Shown here piece by piece: positions 33,395 to 54,359 of a stretch of DNA of 64,000 nucleotides; position 1 is the stretch's first letter; each line of letters opens with the position of its first letter. The DNA comes from Escherichia phage APECc02: sequence record NC_041869.1. The stretch is one strand, 5' to 3'. The notes beneath the pieces are model-generated. The model did no database searches. It saw only the letters and a program-made list of their open reading frames with translations, and was not told the DNA's origin. The translations under genes and the position numbers were made by a program.

Positions 33395-33420
33395 AGGGGC
33401 TTAAAGCCCCTTTCTTTTTG
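33395..33420 (+). terminator. rho-independent terminator
   Basis: hairpin AGGGGC-TTAAA-GCCCCT followed by TTCTTTTTG. Confidence 0.65.
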
Positions 33421-34028
33421 TCTCCTCTTTTCCTACCACAAATGGCCCCGCCTGGCAAATGGAATAATCAACAAGCCAGCAATTAACCCCACTGTACAAA
33501 CATACATATAAAATAACTATTGCATAATTTTTCATTGTGTGGTAGCAGGGCCATTTTTACACGTTTTTCCTTCCAAAATTGCACGTAATGCAGCATTTGC
33601 ACAAAATTTAACCTGATGCATATCTTCAATAGCTTGTCAACAACTAAAAATCTTTATAAGTCATACACTTACATAACTACAAAAGCGTTTTCTACGTGAA
33701 AAATCGAGTATAACTATAGCCGCCAGATCTCAGAATTTACGTACGCTCGCCATTCTATAGCCTGCTAAGCATTTATTCCAACCATAGAATAACGGAATAG
33801 TCAATACCTGCATAAAATAATTATTCGTGTAAACTGCATAACATAAATCGGCCCAGGTGTCAACATTTTTCGTAAACAGTCTGGAATTGTCACGTTAGGT
33901 TACCATAAGCAGAGAAATCTTTAGTCGTCTAATGTTTACTGTACGTTACTATACTAACTGAAATCATTAGATGACTAATAGAAAGATAAGAAATAATTAA
34001 CAATACAATTATTTTATCTGTAACAATA

Positions 34029-34205
34029 AGGCAACTATGCAAACGAATGGCATGGCGCGACGGAGTCGCGACATAATATAAAAGCAGTAACCATCACCCC
34101 CGTGATAGTTTGTCTGCAAACTATTAATCAGATCATAGTTGCCTTGTATTTAGTTAATCATGACATAACAAGCAAGGCAACTATAGATCTGCTAATAGTT
34201 GCCCT
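34029..34205. repeat. four copies of 11-mer AAGGCAACTAT in alternating orientation (candidate protein-binding sites)
   Basis: plus-orientation at 34029 and 34174, inverted at 34136 and 34195; 34135-34146/34173-34184 form a 12-bp perfect inverted repeat 26 bp apart. Confidence 0.6.
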
Positions 34206-34317
34206 GCTTTTATATTATGTCATAGAAACACCCGAAGGGGTGACCAAAGGTTACCTGGCATAGCCAGTGAAAGATTATTAACTTGCTAATCTTTATCATG
34301 CAAACGAATGGCATGGC
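34037..34317. repeat. 20-bp perfect direct repeat ATGCAAACGAATGGCATGGC
   Basis: copies at 34037-34056 and 34298-34317. Confidence 0.65.
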
Positions 34318-34338
34318 TTATCATTTCTGTGTAAATAG

Positions 34339-34390
34339 TCTATGCGTAAACTGTCAAGGCGTAAACAATCTATGCGTGAACAGTGAAACA
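34339..34390. repeat. short direct repeats TCTATGCGT(A/G)AAC and GCGTAAAC
   Basis: TCTATGCGTAAAC at 34339, GGCGTAAACA at 34359, TCTATGCGTGAAC at 34369. Confidence 0.5.
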
Positions 34391-34423
34391 TGAAATAATA
34401 ACAGTTGTTATTGTGTCATATTG

Positions 34424-34505
34424 TGCTGCAGCGTGTTGAGTATGTTTAAGGTGCCCAGTATGTCACCATTATGTCACTATTGTGTCATAGTGTCATAGTA
34501 TGTCA
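34424..34505. repeat. iteron-like array of TGTCA(C/T) pentamers at about 10-11 bp phasing
   Basis: TGTCA at 34424, 34461, 34472, 34483, 34491, 34501 (plus 34362, 34525). Confidence 0.6.
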
Positions 34506-35083
34506 GACAAGTTTTTCCCCTCTTTGTCAAGTGCTGCATGAAAAAATTTACAAGCTGGTATGGTAGCATTTTTGCGGCCTTGTTTACATTCAGTAATGTA
34601 TGTATAACCCTTGATGTGTGGGCGTTTAGACGTCTAGACGGTCAGAAGTCTGCAGGTCAATATCTAATCTATTGGCTGCTAACTATATCCCCCACAAATA
34701 ATAAGAAATATAATTGTTATGTGCGTAAACAGTAACTCATGTTATCAATCCCTGTATGGATCGCCAGTGGTGCGCATAATGGGTATTATGTTAAATTGCC
34801 CGTAATGATAACTATTCTCACAATGATAGGTATTCTCATTCACCCCCACAAGATAGGTTGCAAATGTTGTGCCACTGTGTGAACGGCCTAGCCTATTAAT
34901 TTGCCTCACTGCCTTGATATTTGAGAATTGTTATAAGAATGAGAAGTATTCCCATTTCGTCCGCCTGGCAGCACTCCTGTAGGTCCTGCAAGGACTCTAG
35001 CTGAAAGCTAGACCCTTCGGGCCTCCCTGTAGGTCAGGTCAAAATCGTGGTAGAATTGGGCCTGTTCAGATATTTCTGGCTGA

Positions 35084-35643
35084 CTCTTCAGGTCTGTGTG
35101 GGAAAAGCCAACCTCTCCGGCGGGGCAGGGGGTCATGACGGGAAAATTGCAGGTCAATTAAAAAATTTACGTGGTGTATGAAGCGCTCTTCAGGTAAGGC
35201 ATGTATTATGGGATGAAACCCTCTTCAGGCAATGATATTTGTGGGTGTGATATTTGCTGGAAAGCCAGATATGACGGGACTCCCGGCGGGGCAGGGGTAG
35301 TACAGACAGGGAAAATATGAGAATGTAGTTGGGGAAATTGATCAGACAGGTAGAGTATGGAATATGTTACAAGTATGTTAAATATGGAGGTTGAATATCT
35401 GTAGGATTTGTGTGTAAAATCAAAGACTTAAGGGGTGTTGTGGTATTTTCTATAAATAATTCAAGTTTAATAGGCAATATTTGTCTCTATCCGCTTTGTG
35501 TGGTAAACAGATTCAGATTAGATTGGTTTACAAGTGTATACATAATATACAAATTAAAGATACAAGAAACCCCCCTCCCCCCTTCGGCTACCATTCACCT
35601 TTTCCTCTGACTGGTACTTAAACACTTATTCAGACTCTTCAGG
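35084..35643. repeat. dispersed direct repeats CTCTTCAGG (x4), CCGGCGGGGCAGGGG (x2), CCTGTAGGTC (x2)
   Basis: CTCTTCAGG at 35084, 35186, 35221, 35635; CCGGCGGGGCAGGGG at 35117 and 35283, each followed by G-rich GGGAAAAT. Confidence 0.55.
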
Positions 35644-35993
35644 TTATCACCCATATATCATATGGCAGTGACTGGTGTCCTCCGGCCCCTCTTTCGTCAC
35701 CCGTCCGCTTCGCCATGCTAATGCCATAGCTAATGGTTCGGTTGTTCACCCTGTTCACTCAGGTGTATCTCTATACCCCTTCAAACCGAAGAGAACAGAA
35801 AACCCGAATTACTCGGTAAAAGAAAAGAGAAGAACTTAATTTTATCAGGATAGGCAAGAATGTCAAGGCATGACTGCTCACTAAACAAGCAAACAGTCAT
35901 GTGTGGGAGGTAAGTGATTGTGGTGGTAGGAAATTTAGTTGAAAGATGTGTTATAGGTGCTTCCAGCACTTTAGCCGGGCAGCTAATTGTGTG

Positions 35994-36209
35994 TCAGTCC
36001 AGCGGTTCATCCTCTACTTCACTGAAATCAATGTTCATGGTCTCTTCCCAACCATCGATCTCAGCACAAGAGTGGAGTTCTTTAGGGTTTACTCCCAAAG
36101 CCTCAGCAACAGAGTCTATATTTAACACCTCTGGCAGGTATGATTCATCGAATTCAAGGTAAATCAGGCCACGAGTGTTGTCAGCTCCACCAAATATCTC
36201 TATCTTCAT
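35994..36209 (-). CDS. hypothetical small acidic protein
   Basis: 71-aa ORF, last gene of minus-strand block. Confidence 0.5.
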   Translation of the reverse strand: MKIEIFGGADNTRGLIYLEFDESYLPEVLNIDSVAEALGVNPKELHSCAEIDGWEETMNIDFSEVEDEPLD

Positions 36210-46786: not shown

Positions 46787-47185
46787 TTACTGAACAGAGC
46801 GCGGTGCTGGGAAGGATAACTCTTCTAAAGAGAAGATTTCATTTCCTACCACCCAAGTTGCTGGGTCATCTGGATCAACAGGTTGGATAATCATTACCTC
46901 ATCCGCCTCGCACACACGTTTCCCACCCATAGTAGCGTCAGCCACTAACATACGCGGCTCTTCAGAAATGCACAGGTAGCCACCTCGGCCCACTGTTCCT
47001 TCCACGGGATCCTGCCCTTTGACCACAATGAATACCTTCTCTCCTGTGGCGATATTACTTTTCACACTAACAGTTTGACCAACTTTAGATGTACCGATCT
47101 TGGTGGCTTCAAACATTAAATCCCGAATTACTGTTGCATAGTTGCCGGACACTTTCTTACCTTCTTTAGTAATCTCAATCTTCAT
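46787..47185 (-). CDS. hypothetical protein
   Basis: 132-aa ORF, MKIEIT start. Confidence 0.5.
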   Translation of the reverse strand: MKIEITKEGKKVSGNYATVIRDLMFEATKIGTSKVGQTVSVKSNIATGEKVFIVVKGQDPVEGTVGRGGYLCISEEPRMLVADATMGGKRVCEADEVMIIQPVDPDDPATWVVGNEIFSLEELSFPAPRSVQ

Positions 47186-47457
47186 AATCTAGGCTCCTTA
47201 AATGAATCTATGTAATCAATTAAATCCCAAGCATCGCGATGGGCTGTCAGAGGGTATACTTCTCCGAGAGGGATCATAGCAATAAGTCTATCAAAAACCC
47301 AGTCTGGACGCAACATTTTATGGTGATATTCCCACTCACCTTCCACAGATTTTTTCTGAGTTATCAGGATCTCTGTGTAGTGTTTCTCCTGTCTTGAGTA
47401 GATTGAAAATGACTTGTACATAAATGACCCCCTCTTGTTGAAAACAACAATACACAA
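47182..47457 (-). CDS. hypothetical protein
   Basis: 91-aa ORF. Confidence 0.5.
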   Translation of the reverse strand: MCIVVFNKRGSFMYKSFSIYSRQEKHYTEILITQKKSVEGEWEYHHKMLRPDWVFDRLIAMIPLGEVYPLTAHRDAWDLIDYIDSFKEPRL

Positions 47458-47742
47458 CTACCAGGTTACTGTCAAGTAGGCAACCGTATTATTTTTCTCT
47501 GGGGAGATGCCAACAACATCTACCTGCAGACCTCCTGCCCTTAAATCTCCAACAATGTGAGGGAAGTAATCTGAGAGATGCGAGGGTAGATTTATCGAAA
47601 ATCCGCACCCCAGAAAGCCTGCTAACGCTTTATTTTGTATCTCCCCCACAATCGCATCATAAATGGAGTTAAGCTCGTCAGGGAGCGTTACAGGACGTTT
47701 TAGCGCTAACTGGTGTAATTTGTCCTTAGCACTCATTTTCAT
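47458..47742 (-). CDS. hypothetical protein
   Basis: ATGA overlap with MTase stop; track ORF 47458..47772 trimmed. Confidence 0.45.
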   Translation of the reverse strand: MKMSAKDKLHQLALKRPVTLPDELNSIYDAIVGEIQNKALAGFLGCGFSINLPSHLSDYFPHIVGDLRAGGLQVDVVGISPEKNNTVAYLTVTW

Positions 47743-48272
47743 TTCAGGTCTACCTCTGGAGGTGCCAACCACATAAACGGCGGCAAGTCTAAACGGTTTT
47801 TCTTATCCCACACAAAATATGCATATGCTTGCCCGTCAGTTCTGCCGTTTGATTGAAATGATGGACGCTTAGATATTGTGATCACAGTAGTAGGTGCATT
47901 ATCAAGCCACCATTCAAATCTGGCTTTGCTTTCCAGAAAATTAAGACGCAAAAGCATAATAACTACGTCAGCATCTTTCAACGCCTTGTCTACAAACTCA
48001 CGAGCCAGGCTGTATGGTGGGTTGGTGATAATACAGTCAACATGGTTGTATTCTGTATTCAGATAGTCAACACCTTCTTGTATTTCTCCCCATGCAGATC
48101 CTAACGGCATACGGGAGTAGAACACACCTGAGGCACTATTCCTGCAAGGCTCTAAGTAGGTCCAGTCTTCTGGGAACGGAATAAGGTCATACAGCCCTTC
48201 TGCACACCACTCCGGTGTCACATACTCATCGTAGGCGTTACGTTGTTCATCAGGTTTTCGAGCACAAGTCAT
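47739..48272 (-). CDS. small DNA N6-adenine methyltransferase (phage T1 Dam-like)
   Basis: catalytic motif DCIITNPPYS; 177 aa, size typical of phage stand-alone Dam-type MTases. Confidence 0.6.
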   Translation of the reverse strand: MTCARKPDEQRNAYDEYVTPEWCAEGLYDLIPFPEDWTYLEPCRNSASGVFYSRMPLGSAWGEIQEGVDYLNTEYNHVDCIITNPPYSLAREFVDKALKDADVVIMLLRLNFLESKARFEWWLDNAPTTVITISKRPSFQSNGRTDGQAYAYFVWDKKNRLDLPPFMWLAPPEVDLK

Positions 48273-48282
48273 GCAAATCTCC

Positions 48283-48312
48283 AGATCATAAAAGCCCTCC
48301 GAAGAGGGCTTT
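48283..48312 (-). terminator. putative rho-independent terminator (minus strand)
   Basis: hairpin AAAGCCCTC-CGAAG-AGGGCTTT followed on minus strand by TTTTAT. Confidence 0.5.
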
Positions 48313-48323
48313 AGAATTAATGT

Positions 48324-49373
48324 TTAAGCTTCTTCGACAATTCCTGCACCCAGGATTTTTTCATTGAGCTCTTTTGCTGTTTTAATAATATTGTCCACCA
48401 GACGCTTGCGAGTCTTATCTTTTACCTTAACCTCTTCACCGCCGTTTAGGGTTGTCTTCAATTGGGACAAAATGTCTTGAAGTTCAACGACAGAGAATCG
48501 CTGCAGATCTTCTGAGGTAATCTCACCTAAGGCAATCTTAACGGTCTCACCACTTTCCATCTGCAGGTTCAGGAACACAGTGTGAACATCACCTTTCGAA
48601 CCACCAGCTTTTGCAGATTCAACAGCATGAACTAACTCATCTAAAGAGGTACACTGGTGAATCTCCGGGAGACCTGCTTCACCTAACACACCTTCTTCAT
48701 CACCTTTTGCCAGAAGCTTTTTCGGTTTTTGTCCGTTCTGGATGCGTTGTATGTTACCTTCATCCAGAATGATAGCTCCAGTTCGAGCTGCCAGCTCCTC
48801 TCCGTCCAACCACACTTCACCACCAGCTGTGATGGATGCGATCTCATCTTCTGTCAGCACCCAACCGTAGTATTTTTCGATCAGGCGTTCGAAACGCTTT
48901 TTCCAGTAGCTGACCTGAGTATTCATGTTCACACCGTTACCATAAGTGCCACCTTGATAGTAGTGGAACATAAATTCTGTGTCCGGAGCCACAGTACGTT
49001 CTTTGCAACCCAGCCATAAGATTGTTCCCGCAGAGCAGCACATCCCTTCCGCATGTGCAACAACGCTTGCCTGAGACTCGCGGAATGCCTGCAGATAAGC
49101 CATCGCAATGTGCACGCAACCACCAGGGCTGTTAATGATCACTCGAATGCTTTCTTCAGGCTGAGCCATACGGATCGTCTGCAGGCGAGACATATGATCC
49201 TGCAGGTCTTCCAAATCGTCGATATAAAGAACGTGGTCAACAACAGGTGTTGGGTAGCTGTATGTCTCCATAATACCACCCGGCATACCGAACATTTTAT
49301 TACTCATAGGTTCGAAACCGTTCTGTTTTTCTTTCATGCCGTGTACCATGGTGCTGCGAGGTGTTAAATTCAT
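48324..49373 (-). CDS. ClpP-like serine protease with C-terminal extension of about 120 aa
   Basis: INSPGG motif, catalytic-Ser context GMCCSAGT, His context FMFHYYQGG, as in ClpP/S14 peptidases. Confidence 0.65.
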   Translation of the reverse strand: MNLTPRSTMVHGMKEKQNGFEPMSNKMFGMPGGIMETYSYPTPVVDHVLYIDDLEDLQDHMSRLQTIRMAQPEESIRVIINSPGGCVHIAMAYLQAFRESQASVVAHAEGMCCSAGTILWLGCKERTVAPDTEFMFHYYQGGTYGNGVNMNTQVSYWKKRFERLIEKYYGWVLTEDEIASITAGGEVWLDGEELAARTGAIILDEGNIQRIQNGQKPKKLLAKGDEEGVLGEAGLPEIHQCTSLDELVHAVESAKAGGSKGDVHTVFLNLQMESGETVKIALGEITSEDLQRFSVVELQDILSQLKTTLNGGEEVKVKDKTRKRLVDNIIKTAKELNEKILGAGIVEEA

Positions 49374-49433
49374 GAGAAATCCTTAATATTGGAAGTTGAA
49401 AGCTATTTATTTAAACCTGATTCACATTTACCT

Positions 49434-49745
49434 TTATTTAGCAATCACTAGTGAATACTTACGATTGTCAGAAGCATCACAGCTCAATGATTGCCAGTCT
49501 ACCACATACCACGTATCATTGTCAACAATTACTTTATCGCCTGTTCTGTAGCAGGTACTGCTTTCAATAATCCGAGACTCGATAAAGAATCTGTGTCGGC
49601 GCTCACGTAGCAACGCTAAGTTGATTATATTACCACCGCTGTCCTTGATCCACACATTCTTGGATCCTTTATTTGCCAAAATTGTCTCGCCGTTGTAGAC
49701 AAACAGGCAGTATATTTTATTCAGTTTCTCTTGTATTGTAGCCAT
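49434..49745 (-). CDS. hypothetical protein
   Basis: 103-aa ORF downstream of minus-strand promoter. Confidence 0.5.
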   Translation of the reverse strand: MATIQEKLNKIYCLFVYNGETILANKGSKNVWIKDSGGNIINLALLRERRHRFFIESRIIESSTCYRTGDKVIVDNDTWYVVDWQSLSCDASDNRKYSLVIAK

Positions 49746-49773
49746 ACTGTCCTTCTCTCTGTTTTGTCCGATA

Positions 49774-49802
49774 ATAATATCTAAAGCTTACCTATTTGTC
49801 AA
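49774..49802 (-). promoter_or_regulatory. sigma70-like promoter (minus strand) TTGACA-N17-TATTAT
   Basis: read on minus strand; -35 at 49802-49797, -10 at 49779-49774; hairpin GGGTGG/CCACCC at 49821-49841 just upstream. Confidence 0.55.
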
Positions 49803-49846
49803 CAACTGTTTTAGATATTTAAGGGTGGAATAACCACCCTTCTGTA

Positions 49847-50635
49847 TTACTCGGAAACAGGGGTCCAAATATGATTTGCACGATCCTCAATAAGATTGAG
49901 TGCGATCTGACGACCCAACCCGGAACGAACGACATCGTCTGGACTATCAAAGCTGATCATTCCAACCTCAGGATCTGGATGACGAGTAAAGAAATCCGTC
50001 ACCCATGCAAGGCCAGATTTACCAGGGATGTCACGTTGGCTATTATCACCCATAATTACAAGGGTGGCCTGATCAGAGATCCTTGTGATAATTGACAACA
50101 TTTCTTCAGGGTTAGTTTGCTGTGCCTCGTCAATCAGGACAAAGCATCGCTCATCGAAACTACGACCACGAATGCTTTCAACTTCACAAATCTCGATACG
50201 ACTGTTCTGACCGTCTCCCAGCATTGCGGCAAAAGCACCTTTGCCAACACGACGACAAATCGTGTCCATCATGCTTCGAAGATAGGGCCACAGTTTCTGC
50301 ATTGCATTTCCGGGTTTAAATCCTGAAGTCTTTCCTGTCTGGACGTAAGGACGTGCAACAATGATCTTATCAATCTCGTTCTTACGCAGAAGATCACCTG
50401 CATATGCAGATGCCATAAATGTCTTACCGGATCCAAACACACCGTTTACAATAATAATCTTACGTGACCCCAGATAATCAAGATACTTTTGCTGCTTCTT
50501 ATTCATTGGTCGGAGAGCTGGAGCGGTGTGCTCTCTTTCGTCAGCAAATTTCTCAGCAGCCTTACGCAGGCGATCAGATTTGCGAGCCTCTCTAGCTTCA
50601 TCACGCATGCGTTTTGTTTCTTTAGCTCGACCCAT
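49847..50635 (-). CDS. phoH: PhoH-like ATPase
   Basis: Walker A GVFGSGKT, Walker B VLIDEAQ, PhoH-family length and motif spacing. Confidence 0.8.
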   Translation of the reverse strand: MGRAKETKRMRDEAREARKSDRLRKAAEKFADEREHTAPALRPMNKKQQKYLDYLGSRKIIIVNGVFGSGKTFMASAYAGDLLRKNEIDKIIVARPYVQTGKTSGFKPGNAMQKLWPYLRSMMDTICRRVGKGAFAAMLGDGQNSRIEICEVESIRGRSFDERCFVLIDEAQQTNPEEMLSIITRISDQATLVIMGDNSQRDIPGKSGLAWVTDFFTRHPDPEVGMISFDSPDDVVRSGLGRQIALNLIEDRANHIWTPVSE

Positions 50636-50673
50636 GTTGGGACTCCTTTCAGATTGAGATGTGCCAAGTACTT

Positions 50674-51024
50674 TTACTGCAACAGTTTTTCAATAGCCGC
50701 TTCCATGCTGCTTGCAACAGCCTGAACTCGGATATTCATCTCTTCTTGGTGGATCAGCTCCTTAAGCTCTTTAATGGTAAATTCTTTAGAGAAACCTTCC
50801 ACCATAATCTTGTGCAAGGCTTCTTGCGTGTCTACTTGCAAGAACTTTTCCAGTTTGTTGGCAGAGGCTTCTAAATCAGCCCGAATACGAGGGTCATCTG
50901 TGCGATTCAGCATTAGGCGTAAGCCATCAAGATTAGTAGAAATAGCATCTGCATGTTGAGTAACTAACCGTGGCAAAATGAGGTCTACAAACTTATTAGC
51001 CAAATCGATACGTTCTTGTGTCAC
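50674..51024 (-). CDS. hypothetical protein
   Basis: 116-aa ORF with GTG start overlapping upstream stop (GTGA). Confidence 0.45.
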   Translation of the reverse strand: MTQERIDLANKFVDLILPRLVTQHADAISTNLDGLRLMLNRTDDPRIRADLEASANKLEKFLQVDTQEALHKIMVEGFSKEFTIKELKELIHQEEMNIRVQAVASSMEAAIEKLLQ

Positions 51025-51163: not shown

Positions 51164-51204
51164 ATTATAACCAACTTAACAAAACTTTGTCAACAATTAG
51201 TCAA
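51164..51204 (-). promoter_or_regulatory. sigma70-like promoter (minus strand), tandem -35 boxes TTGACT/TTGACA and -10 TATAAT
   Basis: read on minus strand: TTGACTAATTGTTGACA-N18-TATAAT; overlaps 3' end of nrdG. Confidence 0.55.
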
Positions 51205-51670
51205 CCTGAACCCAACCACCTGCTGCCTTTTTAAACATTCTTTGGTTATCACTACCTCTGAAGGGTTTTTTGGTTGGGTTATCTTTTTCGTACTTACCAT
51301 CCATAATGTAATCGACACTATCTTTAATGTAATCGGGAACCTCTTCAAACAAATACCCTGTGTACACCCAGATAGTTTTTGTGTTGCCGAAGTGTTCACG
51401 GATAGCGCTAATGATCGAGTACATACCCTCAATATTGTAAGGCGCTAAAGGTTCGCCACCGCATAATGTAACGCCAGTAATGTGTTTCGGCTCTATAGAG
51501 TGAAGTATACTCTCAATAGTGTCATTTGTTAACGGTTCCCCTTTAGCTGGTGACCAAACACTTTTGTTTTGGCAACCGACGCAGTGATGTGGGCAACCAG
51601 AACAGAACACCGTTGTCCTAATGCCTGGGCCGTCAACCATGCTACACTCTATAATATTAACAACATTCAT
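51197..51670 (-). CDS. nrdG: anaerobic ribonucleotide reductase activating protein (radical SAM)
   Basis: radical-SAM cluster CSGCPHHCVGC; adjacent to nrdD. Confidence 0.8.
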   Translation of the reverse strand: MNVVNIIECSMVDGPGIRTTVFCSGCPHHCVGCQNKSVWSPAKGEPLTNDTIESILHSIEPKHITGVTLCGGEPLAPYNIEGMYSIISAIREHFGNTKTIWVYTGYLFEEVPDYIKDSVDYIMDGKYEKDNPTKKPFRGSDNQRMFKKAAGGWVQVD

Positions 51671-51903
51671 TCCTTATCCTCTTTTAGGTAAGGATATTCA
51701 GGCCCACAATAAGCTCTATCCAAGAAAACAGCTTCTTCCCCTCTGGAATCAGTAGATCTATAATACCCATCACCATGGTAACTAACGAACCAGTGGCACC
51801 CATCATCGCTTTCTACTGTTGTGGCTCTGTCCGAATGAAAGATAATTTCGTAATCCTTACCGAATGTAAACCATCTGTTAGCTTTTACACAGACACCTAT
51901 CAT
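51667..51903 (-). CDS. hypothetical protein
   Basis: 78-aa ORF between nrdD and nrdG. Confidence 0.45.
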   Translation of the reverse strand: MIGVCVKANRWFTFGKDYEIIFHSDRATTVESDDGCHWFVSYHGDGYYRSTDSRGEEAVFLDRAYCGPEYPYLKEDKE

Positions 51904-52235
51904 AAGGAACCTCTCTTCTGTGGTGTGCTTCTATTCAAGATAAACCTATAAAAGTCCATTTGATGAAGCCGTATAACTTTTTATACTTACGCTTCAGTGC
52001 TAACAATTTTATCTTGATTTTCTTGATAGATTCCCGCATTTCGACCCCTTATGCTTATAAGTACTCCGCATCGCATTCAGGGCAATGCCAAATAAAATCG
52101 TCCAGTGCCTTGCACCAACGAAGATTGCAACGACAACCACACTTGCAAATTTTATAAATACCTTTAGACATACTGTACCCCCCTAGCTCACTGTGTGTCA
52201 ATAATATGCCACATCCTTGTGGCTTTTGTCAAGTA

Positions 52236-54359
52236 TCAGCAACTACAACTTCCATAGTGCTTAACTCGCTCGATAACTTCCGCTTGCTTACCTTTATTGT
52301 AAGGACGGGAGTTAGGACTGGAAAGGTATCCAGACACACGTCGAATTACACTGATCGTTCCCTCTTCATGGTTTCCACACTCTGGGCATACAAAGCCTTT
52401 AGCTGTTGCACTGAACTCACCAGAGAAACCACACTTGAGACATTTATCCACAGGTTGGTTAATACCAAAATACATAATATGTTTATACCCGAAGTCAACA
52501 AGAGCCTCTAAAGCATCCAGGTTGTTTTTCAGGTTAGGTGTCTCTACGTATCCAATGTTGCCACCAGAGGAGATCATAGCAAAACCTTCCTCATACTCCC
52601 ACTTATCAAAAGGAGAGCTATTTATCCACACTGGCTGATGGAAACTGTTGGTGAGATATTCATGCTCGTGCTTTAACACTTCTGGATATTCACGATCCAG
52701 ACAGGTTGCAGCTTTATAGCATAGACTCTCAGAAGGAGTGCCGTACAAGCTAAATGCTAGTCTACTTTCCTTCTTGTATCGCTCACAAGCATCTCTCATG
52801 TGCTGAAGGATTCCAAGAGCTAAAGCCTTGTCACCTTCTCTGCCCAAAATCTGACAGGTTTCATACACACCAATATACCCAATACTGATGGAAGCGTACC
52901 CGTCATAGAAGAGTTTATCAATACTTTCTTCGGGATCCAGGCGAGCAAGAGCGCCTTCACACCACATGATGGGGTTCTGCCCTGCCTTTGTTCCTTTTAG
53001 ACGGTTAACCCTTACAAGGTGAGCCTCGTATGCAAGATCCAAGTATTCGTCAAGAACTGCAAAGAAATCAACACCTTCCGTCTTAGCTTTTGCCGCAATC
53101 ATTGGCAGGTTAAGGCTAACAACGCCTAAGTTAAATCTGCCAAGGTATTTCTCCTCGCCTGTTTCCAAGTCATTGTATTTACTAAGAAAACTCCTGCAAC
53201 CCATGCTAGTTACTTTGCCATCTGTCGAGCCTGTCACTTTTCTATTTAGTGGTACAGATACGAAGTCAGGATAGATACGTTCTGCACAGCATTCCAGAGC
53301 TAATCGTTTCAAATCATAGTTAGGATCCCCAGGGTTCATGTTGACACCCTCTTCCAGGAAGAACAGCACTTTAGGGAACACAGGTGTGATACGTTCTTCA
53401 CCAAGACCCATTTTGTGGACTTTCAAGTAGTTTTTGGTAATCATTCTACCAAAGACCGAGGTATCTAGTCCTAAACTTAATGTGATGAATGGAGTTTGCC
53501 CGTTGACAGAGGTTAACGTATTGATTTGATAGAGCAAAGTCTGCATGCTGTCAAATACATCTTTATCTGTCATTTGCATTGCAACAGTTTCAGCATCCGG
53601 CAACCAATGTTCCTGGCAAAATTTAAGGTTCTTCTCATAGGTTGCTTCAGCATACTGTGCCAGATAATGATCAATATGGCTCATAGTCTGACCACCATAT
53701 TGAGCACTAGCTACCGCGCTAGAGATTTGACTAAGGATTGTTGTTGCAACCCCTATTGACTTCGGCTTACTGACATGGGCGTTGCCAATGTTGAATCCGT
53801 TTTCCAACATATCTGGATAATTTACCAAACAACAGTTTGTTAACGGGCTGATCAAGTAGTCAAGATCATGCACATGGATGAAGCCTTTATTGTGCTCTTC
53901 TGAAACACGGTCTGGCAGGATCTGTGTTGATGCAAGGTGTTTGCTAAGGATGCCTGCAAGCAGGTCACGATGAGTGTGTACATGATTAGTGGGCTTATTT
54001 GCGTTTTCTTTTGTAAATTCATCACAAGTTCGATCCAAGAAGCCACTAATATCTGCAAGCAGTTTTCCACCTGCCTCTCTGTTATTATCTCTTGTCTGTC
54101 TATACTGGATGTATTCTCTGGCTGCACATTTTAAACCCATATCCATAAGAGCATCTTCAACAAGGATATGGATATTTTTTACAGAGATCGTGCACTGGTC
54201 GGTTGGCAGATTGTTAGCAACAACTTCATTAACCGCACAAGCGATCCGGTAAGCTTCTTCTTCAGTATGCCCAGACTCAAGTAAGGCGGACTCTGCCGCC
54301 TTGATCACCTTAATTCCGTTATAGAACTCTTCTCTACCGTCCCGTTTTACAACTTTCAC
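52236..54359 (-). CDS. nrdD: anaerobic ribonucleoside-triphosphate reductase
   Basis: 707 aa; glycyl-radical motif RVSGY near C-terminus; C-terminal Cys cluster CLKCG...CPECG. Confidence 0.85.
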   Translation of the reverse strand: MKVVKRDGREEFYNGIKVIKAAESALLESGHTEEEAYRIACAVNEVVANNLPTDQCTISVKNIHILVEDALMDMGLKCAAREYIQYRQTRDNNREAGGKLLADISGFLDRTCDEFTKENANKPTNHVHTHRDLLAGILSKHLASTQILPDRVSEEHNKGFIHVHDLDYLISPLTNCCLVNYPDMLENGFNIGNAHVSKPKSIGVATTILSQISSAVASAQYGGQTMSHIDHYLAQYAEATYEKNLKFCQEHWLPDAETVAMQMTDKDVFDSMQTLLYQINTLTSVNGQTPFITLSLGLDTSVFGRMITKNYLKVHKMGLGEERITPVFPKVLFFLEEGVNMNPGDPNYDLKRLALECCAERIYPDFVSVPLNRKVTGSTDGKVTSMGCRSFLSKYNDLETGEEKYLGRFNLGVVSLNLPMIAAKAKTEGVDFFAVLDEYLDLAYEAHLVRVNRLKGTKAGQNPIMWCEGALARLDPEESIDKLFYDGYASISIGYIGVYETCQILGREGDKALALGILQHMRDACERYKKESRLAFSLYGTPSESLCYKAATCLDREYPEVLKHEHEYLTNSFHQPVWINSSPFDKWEYEEGFAMISSGGNIGYVETPNLKNNLDALEALVDFGYKHIMYFGINQPVDKCLKCGFSGEFSATAKGFVCPECGNHEEGTISVIRRVSGYLSSPNSRPYNKGKQAEVIERVKHYGSCSC

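Follow-up and report, generated by a model that had tools for sequence, protein, structure and literature searches.

A ClpP-like protease with an orphan C-terminal domain among the DNA-metabolism genes of rV5-like coliphages

Cellular ClpP (MEROPS S14, PF00574, TIGR00493) carries its catalytic serine in a G-x-x-x-S-A-G motif, together with a histidine, an NSPGG oxyanion motif and a handle-region helix, and in Escherichia coli ClpAP the pocket that receives the IGF/IGL loops is made up of 12 ClpP residues (bioRxiv 10.1101/820209). Phages encode ClpP-related head-maturation proteases (NF045542; phrog_1684, 94, 2976 and 133), which often bear C-terminal extensions, and also stand-alone ClpP-like proteins (phrog_1827) such as ORF211 of ICP1, ORF255 of the KVP40-like phage ValKK3 and the 'ATP-dependent protease' of Pakpunavirus and Otagovirus. 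ClpP has further been noted in jumbo phages, and a host-directed role for the patchily distributed phage ClpPs was proposed on comparative grounds (Iyer et al. 2021, PMC7824862). The subject here is the ClpP-like protease gene of Escherichia phage APECc02, studied within a stretch of 64,000 nucleotides of its genome (NC_041869.1; hereafter the window). It corresponds to CM1_00115 of Shigella phage CM1 and to gp122 of phage rV5, a protein of 349 aa and 38.5 kDa (PMC3606486 Table S3).

The gene itself is no discovery. Over the 4 kb surrounding the gene, identity is 99.5% with phage CM1 and 98-99% with about 100 rV5-like coliphages (Vequintavirus), proteins 100% identical to the protease are already in public records, and the gene is catalogued in more than 100 Vequintavirus genomes as "ClpP ATP-dependent protease subunit" or "ClpP-like protease". 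Literature searches found no functional study of phage non-head ClpP-like proteins, and the departures of the gp122 family from ClpP, its linkage to gp121 and its linkage to PhoH were found undiscussed in the searchable literature.

On balance, it seems somewhat probable, if by no means secure, that the protease is a non-structural protein of early or mid-infection, made together with DNA-metabolism genes, in which a ClpP-type chamber has been uncoupled from ClpX/ClpA and given its own tethered recognition or gating domain. The name "ClpP" is probably misleading, as the chamber chemistry of ClpP is kept, the features of ClpX/ClpA coupling are lost, a private C-terminal domain is present and the protein, judged by its context, is not the capsid protease. 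Related cores are spread through large lytic phages (ICP1, KVP40-like, Pakpunavirus, marine), always among replication and nucleotide genes, and the substrates of the protease could reveal a common step of host takeover or anti-defence, and could bear on a possible link between phage PhoH and proteolysis.

The ClpP-like core and its departures from ClpP

The open reading frame (ORF) lies exactly where the initial annotation had placed it; it is on the minus strand and encodes 349 aa (Table 1), and a ribosome-binding site, AAGGA, stands 7 nt 5' of its ATG. All three catalytic-site contexts named there were found in the translation: INSPGG at residues 80-85, GMCCSAG with Ser114, and FHYYQGG with His137. 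The protein belongs to the rV5 gp122 family, as it matches phrog_5410 over its full length (expectation value (E) 7.7e-155; protein residues 24-345 on profile positions 4-322 of 323) and has a gp121-like gene upstream; the related core clade phrog_1827 matches at E 1.3e-39. Over residues 59-168 the protein matches Pfam CLP_protease (PF00574) at E 2.3e-12, its 47.6 bits lying above the cut-off of 20.2.

An AlphaFold (AF2) model built on a 21-sequence family alignment consists of three parts. The core, residues 44-222, has a predicted local distance difference test score (pLDDT) of about 90; residues 223-262 form a disordered linker; and a C-terminal domain, folded with pLDDT 80-90, spans about 263-343. 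The top Foldseek matches of the model in the PDB are all ClpP, with E of about 1e-9, target-normalised template modelling scores (TM-scores) of 0.62-0.71, about 160-175 aligned residues and 17-24% identity. The predicted model and these matches place the core in the ClpP/crotonase-like fold, and it shares with cellular ClpP the serine in its motif, the histidine, the NSPGG oxyanion motif and the handle-region helix.

The catalytic residues were compared in an alignment of the family to ClpP of E. coli and S. aureus, in whose sequences the expected residues (97/122/171 and 98/123/172) were confirmed. No change at Ser114, His137 or the oxyanion-hole Gly85 is seen among the 21 family members or among 10 phage homologues that are more distant. 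Where ClpP has Asp171, on the other hand, this protein has Glu186, and across the family that position is Glu in 4 and Gln in 17 of the 21 members; the Ser-His pair is thus intact and the Ser-His-Asp triad is not, the Asp being replaced. At the position of R170, which we take to be a ring-ring sensor residue of ClpP, the gp122 family has an invariant Gly. The N-terminal axial gating loop has no counterpart, residues 1-43 showing no conservation in that respect and not being alignable to residues 1-19 of E. coli ClpP.

These replacements raise the thought that the protein keeps the ClpP fold with weak or lost peptidase activity and serves as an assembly platform or a chaperone-like cage, for which the Gln at the catalytic Asp in 17 members and the Gly at R170 would speak. 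Catalysis is possible with a Ser/His dyad and also with Gln or Glu as the third residue. Since Ser114, His137, INSPGG and the residues around them are invariant across sequences of about 25-100% identity, which is hard to explain if catalysis had been given up, an inactive cage appears very improbable indeed.

The docking pocket departs from that of ClpP too. Going from E. coli ClpP to the phage protease, the alignment pairs L48 with Q65, F49 with T66, A52 with M69, F82 with E99, L23 with P43, Y60 with R77, Y62 with I79, I90 with H107, M92 with E109, F112 with T127, L114 with A129, and L189 with I202. Half of the 12 positions (Q65, R77, E99, H107, E109 and T127) are invariant in the family. 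As aligned, then, the hydrophobic pocket for ClpX/ClpA is not retained and polar, family-invariant residues have taken its place.

Curated profiles tell a similar story of distance. The initial annotation had proposed a profile search for separating ClpP from the S49 and prohead-protease families. S49 is excluded by it, as Pfam Peptidase_S49 gave no match at E <=1 and the SppA model TIGR00706 scored 14.4 bits against a cut-off of 155; SppA and lambda gpC (MEROPS S49) have only clan and fold class in common with the protease. The NCBIfam models of cellular ClpP scored 33-39 bits against cut-offs of 228-309 (TIGR00493, 33.2 against 308.6; PRK models, 38-39 against 228-249). Among head-protease models, NF045542 (head maturation protease, ClpP-related) reached 60.3 bits (E 2.1e-16) against a cut-off of 120, and NF045540 (ClpP-like prohead protease/capsid fusion) 51 bits against 475. 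The best PHROG relative of the core annotated for head maturation is phrog_1684 (E 3.9e-21, 77 bits), with phrog_94, 2976 and 133 matching as well, PHROGs having no curated threshold. Every curated NCBIfam cut-off for ClpP and head proteases was thus missed and Pfam PF00574 alone was passed. On these scores the core is marginally closer to the ClpP-related head-maturation proteases than to cellular ClpP, and is best described as a distinct clade of ClpP-fold peptidases that is neither S49, nor curated ClpP, nor a curated head protease.

The same evidence bears on whether the protein could be a true ATP-dependent Clp proteolytic subunit, which would join host ClpX/ClpA, alone or mixed with host ClpP, and redirect host proteolysis. 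The Pfam gathering score that is passed, the ClpP fold with its handle-region helix and the conserved Ser and His would suit such a role, and no ClpX-type AAA+ unfoldase is annotated in the related genomes, so that a host partner would be needed. Yet the would-be docking surface is polar or charged and invariant, the N-terminal gate, R170 and Asp171 are not conserved, and the scores fall far below the curated ClpP cut-offs. When the V5-like phage LL12 was screened on the Keio collection, genes for lipopolysaccharide alone were reported as required, with no clp gene mentioned; such a screen would overlook non-essential effects, which makes the evidence weak. We consider a role as Clp subunit quite unlikely. 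The match to ClpP/S14 peptidases claimed in the initial annotation therefore stands for the fold, the Ser/His pair and the Pfam threshold, and fails for the catalytic Asp, which is replaced, for the docking pocket and N-terminal gate, which are unconserved, and for the curated ClpP models, which are missed widely.

The C-terminal domain and its selection

Compared with cellular ClpP, the protein has an extra C-terminal region that carries a domain of its own. The extension, which had been put at about 120 residues, is real and somewhat longer: with the core ending at about residue 205-222, it amounts to 127-145 residues. The length and the sequence of the linker differ among genera. When codons are compared with a 97%-identical relative (the IMG/VR locus L011), synonymous differences outnumber non-synonymous ones by 37:8 in the core, 10:1 in the linker and 21:2 in the C-terminal domain, linker and C-terminal domain together holding 31 synonymous and 3 non-synonymous differences. 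Because this synonymous excess is seen in core, linker and C-terminal domain alike, the protease is coding and constrained over its whole length, and the C-terminal domain is under purifying selection.

What this domain is related to was pursued with several kinds of search. Pfam scans of 18 family C-termini found nothing significant, HeH and SAP each appearing in one member at E of about 0.1. The domain is net acidic by count from its sequence. Profile-profile alignment of the domain with hhalign was negative for the N-terminus of Rho, and with two proteins of the phage, the scaffold-like one and one of 275 aa from the head module, it gave E 0.25-0.32, hence no detectable similarity. A BFVD search with the domain returned a family member as its sole match. 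A profile of the domain run against 1.84 billion representative proteins gave 6 matches, of which 4 are full-length family members and 2, of only 144 and 53 aa, are apparently pieces of family members. An identity as a SAP/HeH DNA-binding domain was considered and dropped on the Pfam, hhalign, BFVD and large-profile results. As far as these searches reach, the C-terminal domain is a private, conserved orphan domain of the gp122 family and not a scaffold domain.

The comparison with the stand-alone phage proteins is instructive. Proteins of phrog_1827 share with gp122 the core clade, the place among replication and nucleotide-metabolism genes and, frequently, the PhoH neighbour; they are mostly of 180-240 aa, without the gp122-type C-terminal domain. 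In ICP1-type proteins, of about 320 aa, the C-terminal region likewise has a hairpin and a helix-loop-helix in a similar arrangement, but its hhalign comparison with the gp122 domain (E 0.03-0.07) is not significant and does not demonstrate homology.

Genomic context: head genes, transcription unit and PhoH

The initial annotation had found no capsid or scaffold genes nearby, and indeed tblastn with the CM1 terminase, portal, head-protease candidate, scaffold-like, decoration, major capsid and sheath proteins gave no match in the window. In complete genomes that are 98-99.5% identical, the head cluster, whose location it had wished to see established, is about 33 kb from the protease gene, which is surrounded there by genes of nucleotide metabolism; in CM1 it occupies 53.4-59.6 kb and the protease gene 91.1-92.2 kb. 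The order in the cluster of CM1 and EduardKellenberger is terminase, portal, a protein of 134-139 aa, a 325-aa protein, decoration and a lambda-gpE-type major capsid protein. The 134-aa protein matches phrog_1530 and, at 6.9e-17 and 62 bits (cut-off 24), Pfam Peptidase_S78_2, the family of XkdF-type phage serine proteases. Mass spectrometry of virions of W70 (Vequintavirinae) detected the phrog_1530 "capsid maturation protease", encoded there between the portal and capsid genes (PMC11370258). Because an S78_2 protein fills the portal-capsid slot and phrog_1530 is present in the W70 virion, the genome is taken, by homology, to have a separate and canonically placed head protease between the portal and the scaffold-like and capsid genes.

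Two further observations concern the products of this cluster, both outside the window. The 325-aa protein CM1_00060 (L003 6902-7879; phrog_2970) is called 'head scaffold protein' in the BASEL annotation, and in purified W70 virions the phrog_2970 protein is abundant, with 913 spectra, under the label 'capsid protein' (PMC11370258). Instead of being a scaffold that is removed, it may stay in the capsid as a component. The major capsid protein of rV5, gp60 (L003 5436-6443), has an N-terminus that is untrimmed, because the virion peptide KDEFGIVDLGATLDLVPR begins at residue 5, and whichever head protease acts probably targets proteins other than the major capsid protein.

Could the ClpP-like protein nevertheless be a head-maturation or auxiliary prohead protease, encoded remote from the head genes and brought to the procapsid by its C-terminal domain, in the way that scaffold-like tails bring in other prohead proteases? 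Its best curated matches are, after all, NF045542 and the head-maturation PHROGs, and one relative is annotated 'head maturation protease'. Its C-terminal helix-loop-helix may also resemble the coat-binding ends of scaffold proteins, which are established for P22. Unlike NF045542-type proteins, however, the protease scores only half of the curated cut-off and sits outside the head module, in a predicted promoter-to-terminator unit of sigma-70 type among DNA-metabolism genes; a separate S78_2 protease stands in the head cluster, and its family is the one found in the W70 virion; the extension does not detectably resemble the phage's scaffold-like protein; and in rV5 virions the N-terminus of the major capsid protein is retained. 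Homologous cores are moreover found among the DNA-metabolism genes of a T4-type phage, a 110-kb Klebsiella phage (beside a deoxynucleoside monophosphate (dNMP) kinase gene) and marine contigs (with queuosine and nucleotide genes), of which the T4-type and the Klebsiella phage are presumed to have established prohead proteases of their own. A morphogenetic role is accordingly held to be unlikely, even given the higher head-protease profile score. The initial annotation had named a place in the head cluster and an extension matching a scaffold domain as the findings that would speak against its view; neither was found, and its suggestion of a stand-alone protease with an extra domain, rather than a head protease, is supported by this context. 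That the protease is regulatory, or its extra domain a targeting domain, stays conjectural.

The predicted transcription unit points in the same direction. The promoter-like site upstream of the 103-aa gene gp121 (Table 1) corresponds to the predicted rV5 promoter P121, and the hairpin that follows the protease gene corresponds to the predicted rV5 terminator t122 (GCCCTCTTCGGAGGGCTTTTAT, -14.9 kcal/mol; PMC3606486 Table S4). Gene gp121 and the protease gene are thus predicted to be co-transcribed, from a sigma-70-type promoter to their own terminator. A gp121 homologue lies upstream of the protease gene in 17/17 related IMG/VR loci; gp121 itself has no Pfam or NCBIfam match, and neither it nor the protease matched the PADLOC defence models. 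The rV5 authors described a late-promoter motif as restricted to the structural module (PMC3606486 Table S4). This motif, TGGTAAAATA, has no exact copy in the window; copies with one mismatch number 14 against 7 +/- 2.9 expected, a count reached by 2 of 100 shuffles, which is no clear enrichment.

The protease gene has also been described as lying next to PhoH and a methyltransferase gene, and so it does, with one ORF of 103 aa between PhoH and the protease and the methyltransferase downstream. The methyltransferase keeps its position in Barba8S and in Certrevirus F2M1E. PhoH lies upstream on the same strand in 16/17 of the related IMG/VR loci (L011-L027 except L024), which resemble Vequintavirinae. 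The order PhoH then ClpP-like gene recurs in two large contigs about 34% identical (L028 and L029), in Certrevirus F2M1E, ICP1, Vibrio phage K460 and Barbavirus, and, with an 8-nt overlap of one gene with the other, in Otagovirus phiPsa267; it has been reported, too, for Alteromonas phage V22 (PMC7289586). In Pakpunavirus, Kassivere, the KVP40-like ValKK3, the 110-kb Klebsiella phage Roth50, an N4-like phage and many marine contigs there is no PhoH gene near the ClpP-like one, and short ClpP-like genes without a PhoH neighbour still sit among nucleotide or queuosine genes. For Roth50, an upstream 'phosphomevalonate kinase' was considered as a hidden PhoH and rejected, as it is a dNMP kinase.

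The order often survives the insertion of homing-endonuclease genes between the two. An extra ORF of about 200-384 aa stands in the gap between PhoH and the protease unit in L013, L018-L021, L025 and L026 (two in L021), and further at L005 3038-3670 and L094 2461-3504. The gap ORFs of ICP1 and K460 are annotated as HNH endonucleases, those of the IMG/VR loci being known by position and length alone, and the pattern suggests that the gap between PhoH and gp121 is a hot spot for homing-endonuclease insertion.

A linkage of this kind invites the proposal that the protease and the PhoH-like ATPase form a phage-encoded two-component ATP-dependent protease, or a module of protein/RNA quality control. 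The recurrence of the gene order in many phage lineages, through homing-endonuclease insertions, would fit, and so would a former docking pocket that is polar yet invariant, as is expected of a conserved interface. On the other hand, PhoH is a P-loop ATPase resembling SF1 helicases and linked to RNA, and not a known unfoldase (PMC7824862). The phages with a ClpP-like gene and no PhoH nearby are numerous, and several of the lineages with linkage share other rV5-like genes and may be related, so that the synteny may be inherited rather than selected. For rV5-type genomes, furthermore, predictions assign each of the two genes to a promoter unit of its own. A perfect sigma-70 consensus, TTGACA-18-TATAAT (12/12), stands at 51164-51193 of the window (minus strand), upstream of a 116-aa ORF that precedes PhoH, and matches the predicted rV5 promoter P118 (PMC3606486 Table S4); PhoH and the protease thus appear to stand in adjacent but separate units. 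A two-component protease with PhoH is in our view improbable. A bolder variant, in which the invariant polar surface found in place of the ClpX/ClpA pocket would be the docking site of PhoH or gp121 and the C-terminal domains would select substrates, giving energy-dependent degradation without an AAA+ unfoldase, is a long shot. If true, it would give a concrete function to phage PhoH, a very widespread 'marker gene'.

Returning to the favoured reading of a non-structural protease uncoupled from ClpX/ClpA, a working model can be drawn. The core would assemble into a ClpP-like ring chamber. Because the C-terminus of ClpP emerges on the apical face, the C-terminal domains may sit around the pore, where they could serve as a built-in recognition or gating module for particular substrates or a partner, in place of a docked AAA+ unfoldase. 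During expression of the DNA-metabolism genes the protease would act in the cytoplasm, its substrates being host proteins or phage proteins that are short-lived, and the co-transcribed gp121 is a candidate partner or regulator.

Several points weigh against this reading. The oligomeric state, the activity, the role of the C-terminal domain, the substrates and the timing are all inferred, and no experiment on the gp122 family was found in the searchable literature. The pocket comparison hangs on an alignment at about 20% identity, and the expression timing on predictions of promoter and terminator rather than transcript data. The core scores higher with profiles of ClpP-related head-maturation proteases (60-77 bits) than with those of cellular ClpP (33-48 bits). 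Prohead proteases, lastly, often destroy themselves and are absent from virions, and for this reason absence by virion mass spectrometry is weak evidence. Neither phrog_5410 nor phrog_1827 is among the 28 virion proteins of W70, the presence of a ClpP-like gene in the W70 genome being unchecked (PMC11370258), and none of the 19 proteins detected in the rV5 virion has 349 aa (PMC3606486 Table S5).

Feature coordinates and other parts of the window

The coordinates of the protease gene, its parts and its neighbours are collected in Table 1.

Table 1. The ClpP-like protease gene, the parts of its product and the adjoining features, in window coordinates
Feature	Position	Strand	Remarks
ClpP-like protease gene (rV5 gp122; CM1_00115)	48324..49373	-	349 aa + stop, ATG start; from the ORF list; phrog_5410
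N-terminal residues 1-43	49245..49373	-	Variable, predicted disordered, pLDDT 27-35; conserved FGMPG and YSYP motifs
ClpP-fold peptidase core, residues 44-222	48708..49244	-	pLDDT about 90; Foldseek ClpP matches
Ser114 codon; His137 codon	49032-49034; 48963-48965	-	In core
Flexible linker, residues 223-262	48588..48707	-	pLDDT <50 at 223-240 and 258-262; gappy, unconserved alignment columns
C-terminal domain, residues 263-349	48327..48587	-	Family-restricted; predicted beta-hairpin and helix-loop-helix; F293, E297 and R322 invariant
Sigma-70-type promoter-like site, TTGACA-17-TATTAT	49774..49802	-	11/12 in consensus scan; upstream of 103-aa gene; predicted only
Intrinsic-terminator-like hairpin, AGCCCTC-TTCG-GAGGGCT then TTTAT	48288..48310	-	Directly 3' of protease stop codon
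103-aa gene (rV5 gp121)	49434..49745	-	phrog_5456, E 1.8e-39
PhoH-like P-loop ATPase, 262 aa	49847..50635	-	Pfam PhoH, 3.6e-47; upstream neighbour
Putative N6-adenine DNA methyltransferase, 177 aa	47739..48272	-	NPPY motif; phrog_799, 8.1e-67; Pfam matches below cut-off; downstream neighbour

Elsewhere in the window, positions 33400-36000 form a stretch of about 2.6 kb without any ORF of at least 70 aa, at the junction of plus- and minus-strand gene blocks and at the peak of the cumulative GC skew. It holds direct repeats of the GCGTAAAC type, spaced by 15 nt, at 34331-34387, exact repeats at 34037/34298 and 35117/35283, and a perfect 18-nt inverted repeat at 34070-34087/34204-34221. Searches for tRNA genes and Rfam families gave no match anywhere in the window, and the stretches that match this region are largely unannotated in the CM1 and EduardKellenberger records too. 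It is a candidate for a replication origin or terminus, or for a region of non-coding RNA.

A further observation concerns nrdD (anaerobic ribonucleotide reductase), which is one intact ORF of 707 aa at 52236-54359 (minus strand). In CM1 it is annotated as two coding sequences about 260-300 nt apart, and that segment (L001 27167-27425) is absent from the window. The segment just downstream of nrdD in the direction of transcription is non-homologous between the two (51308-52258 of the window against L001 24311-25926). The difference looks like an intron, homing-endonuclease or insertion polymorphism.

Finally, 121 records match positions 47000-51000 of the window, 120 of them at an identity of at least 90%, and 19 of the 121 are labelled 'Campylobacter phage' (17 with the host given as C. 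jejuni). Given that they match this region of an E. coli phage, these records are probably mislabelled or contaminated.

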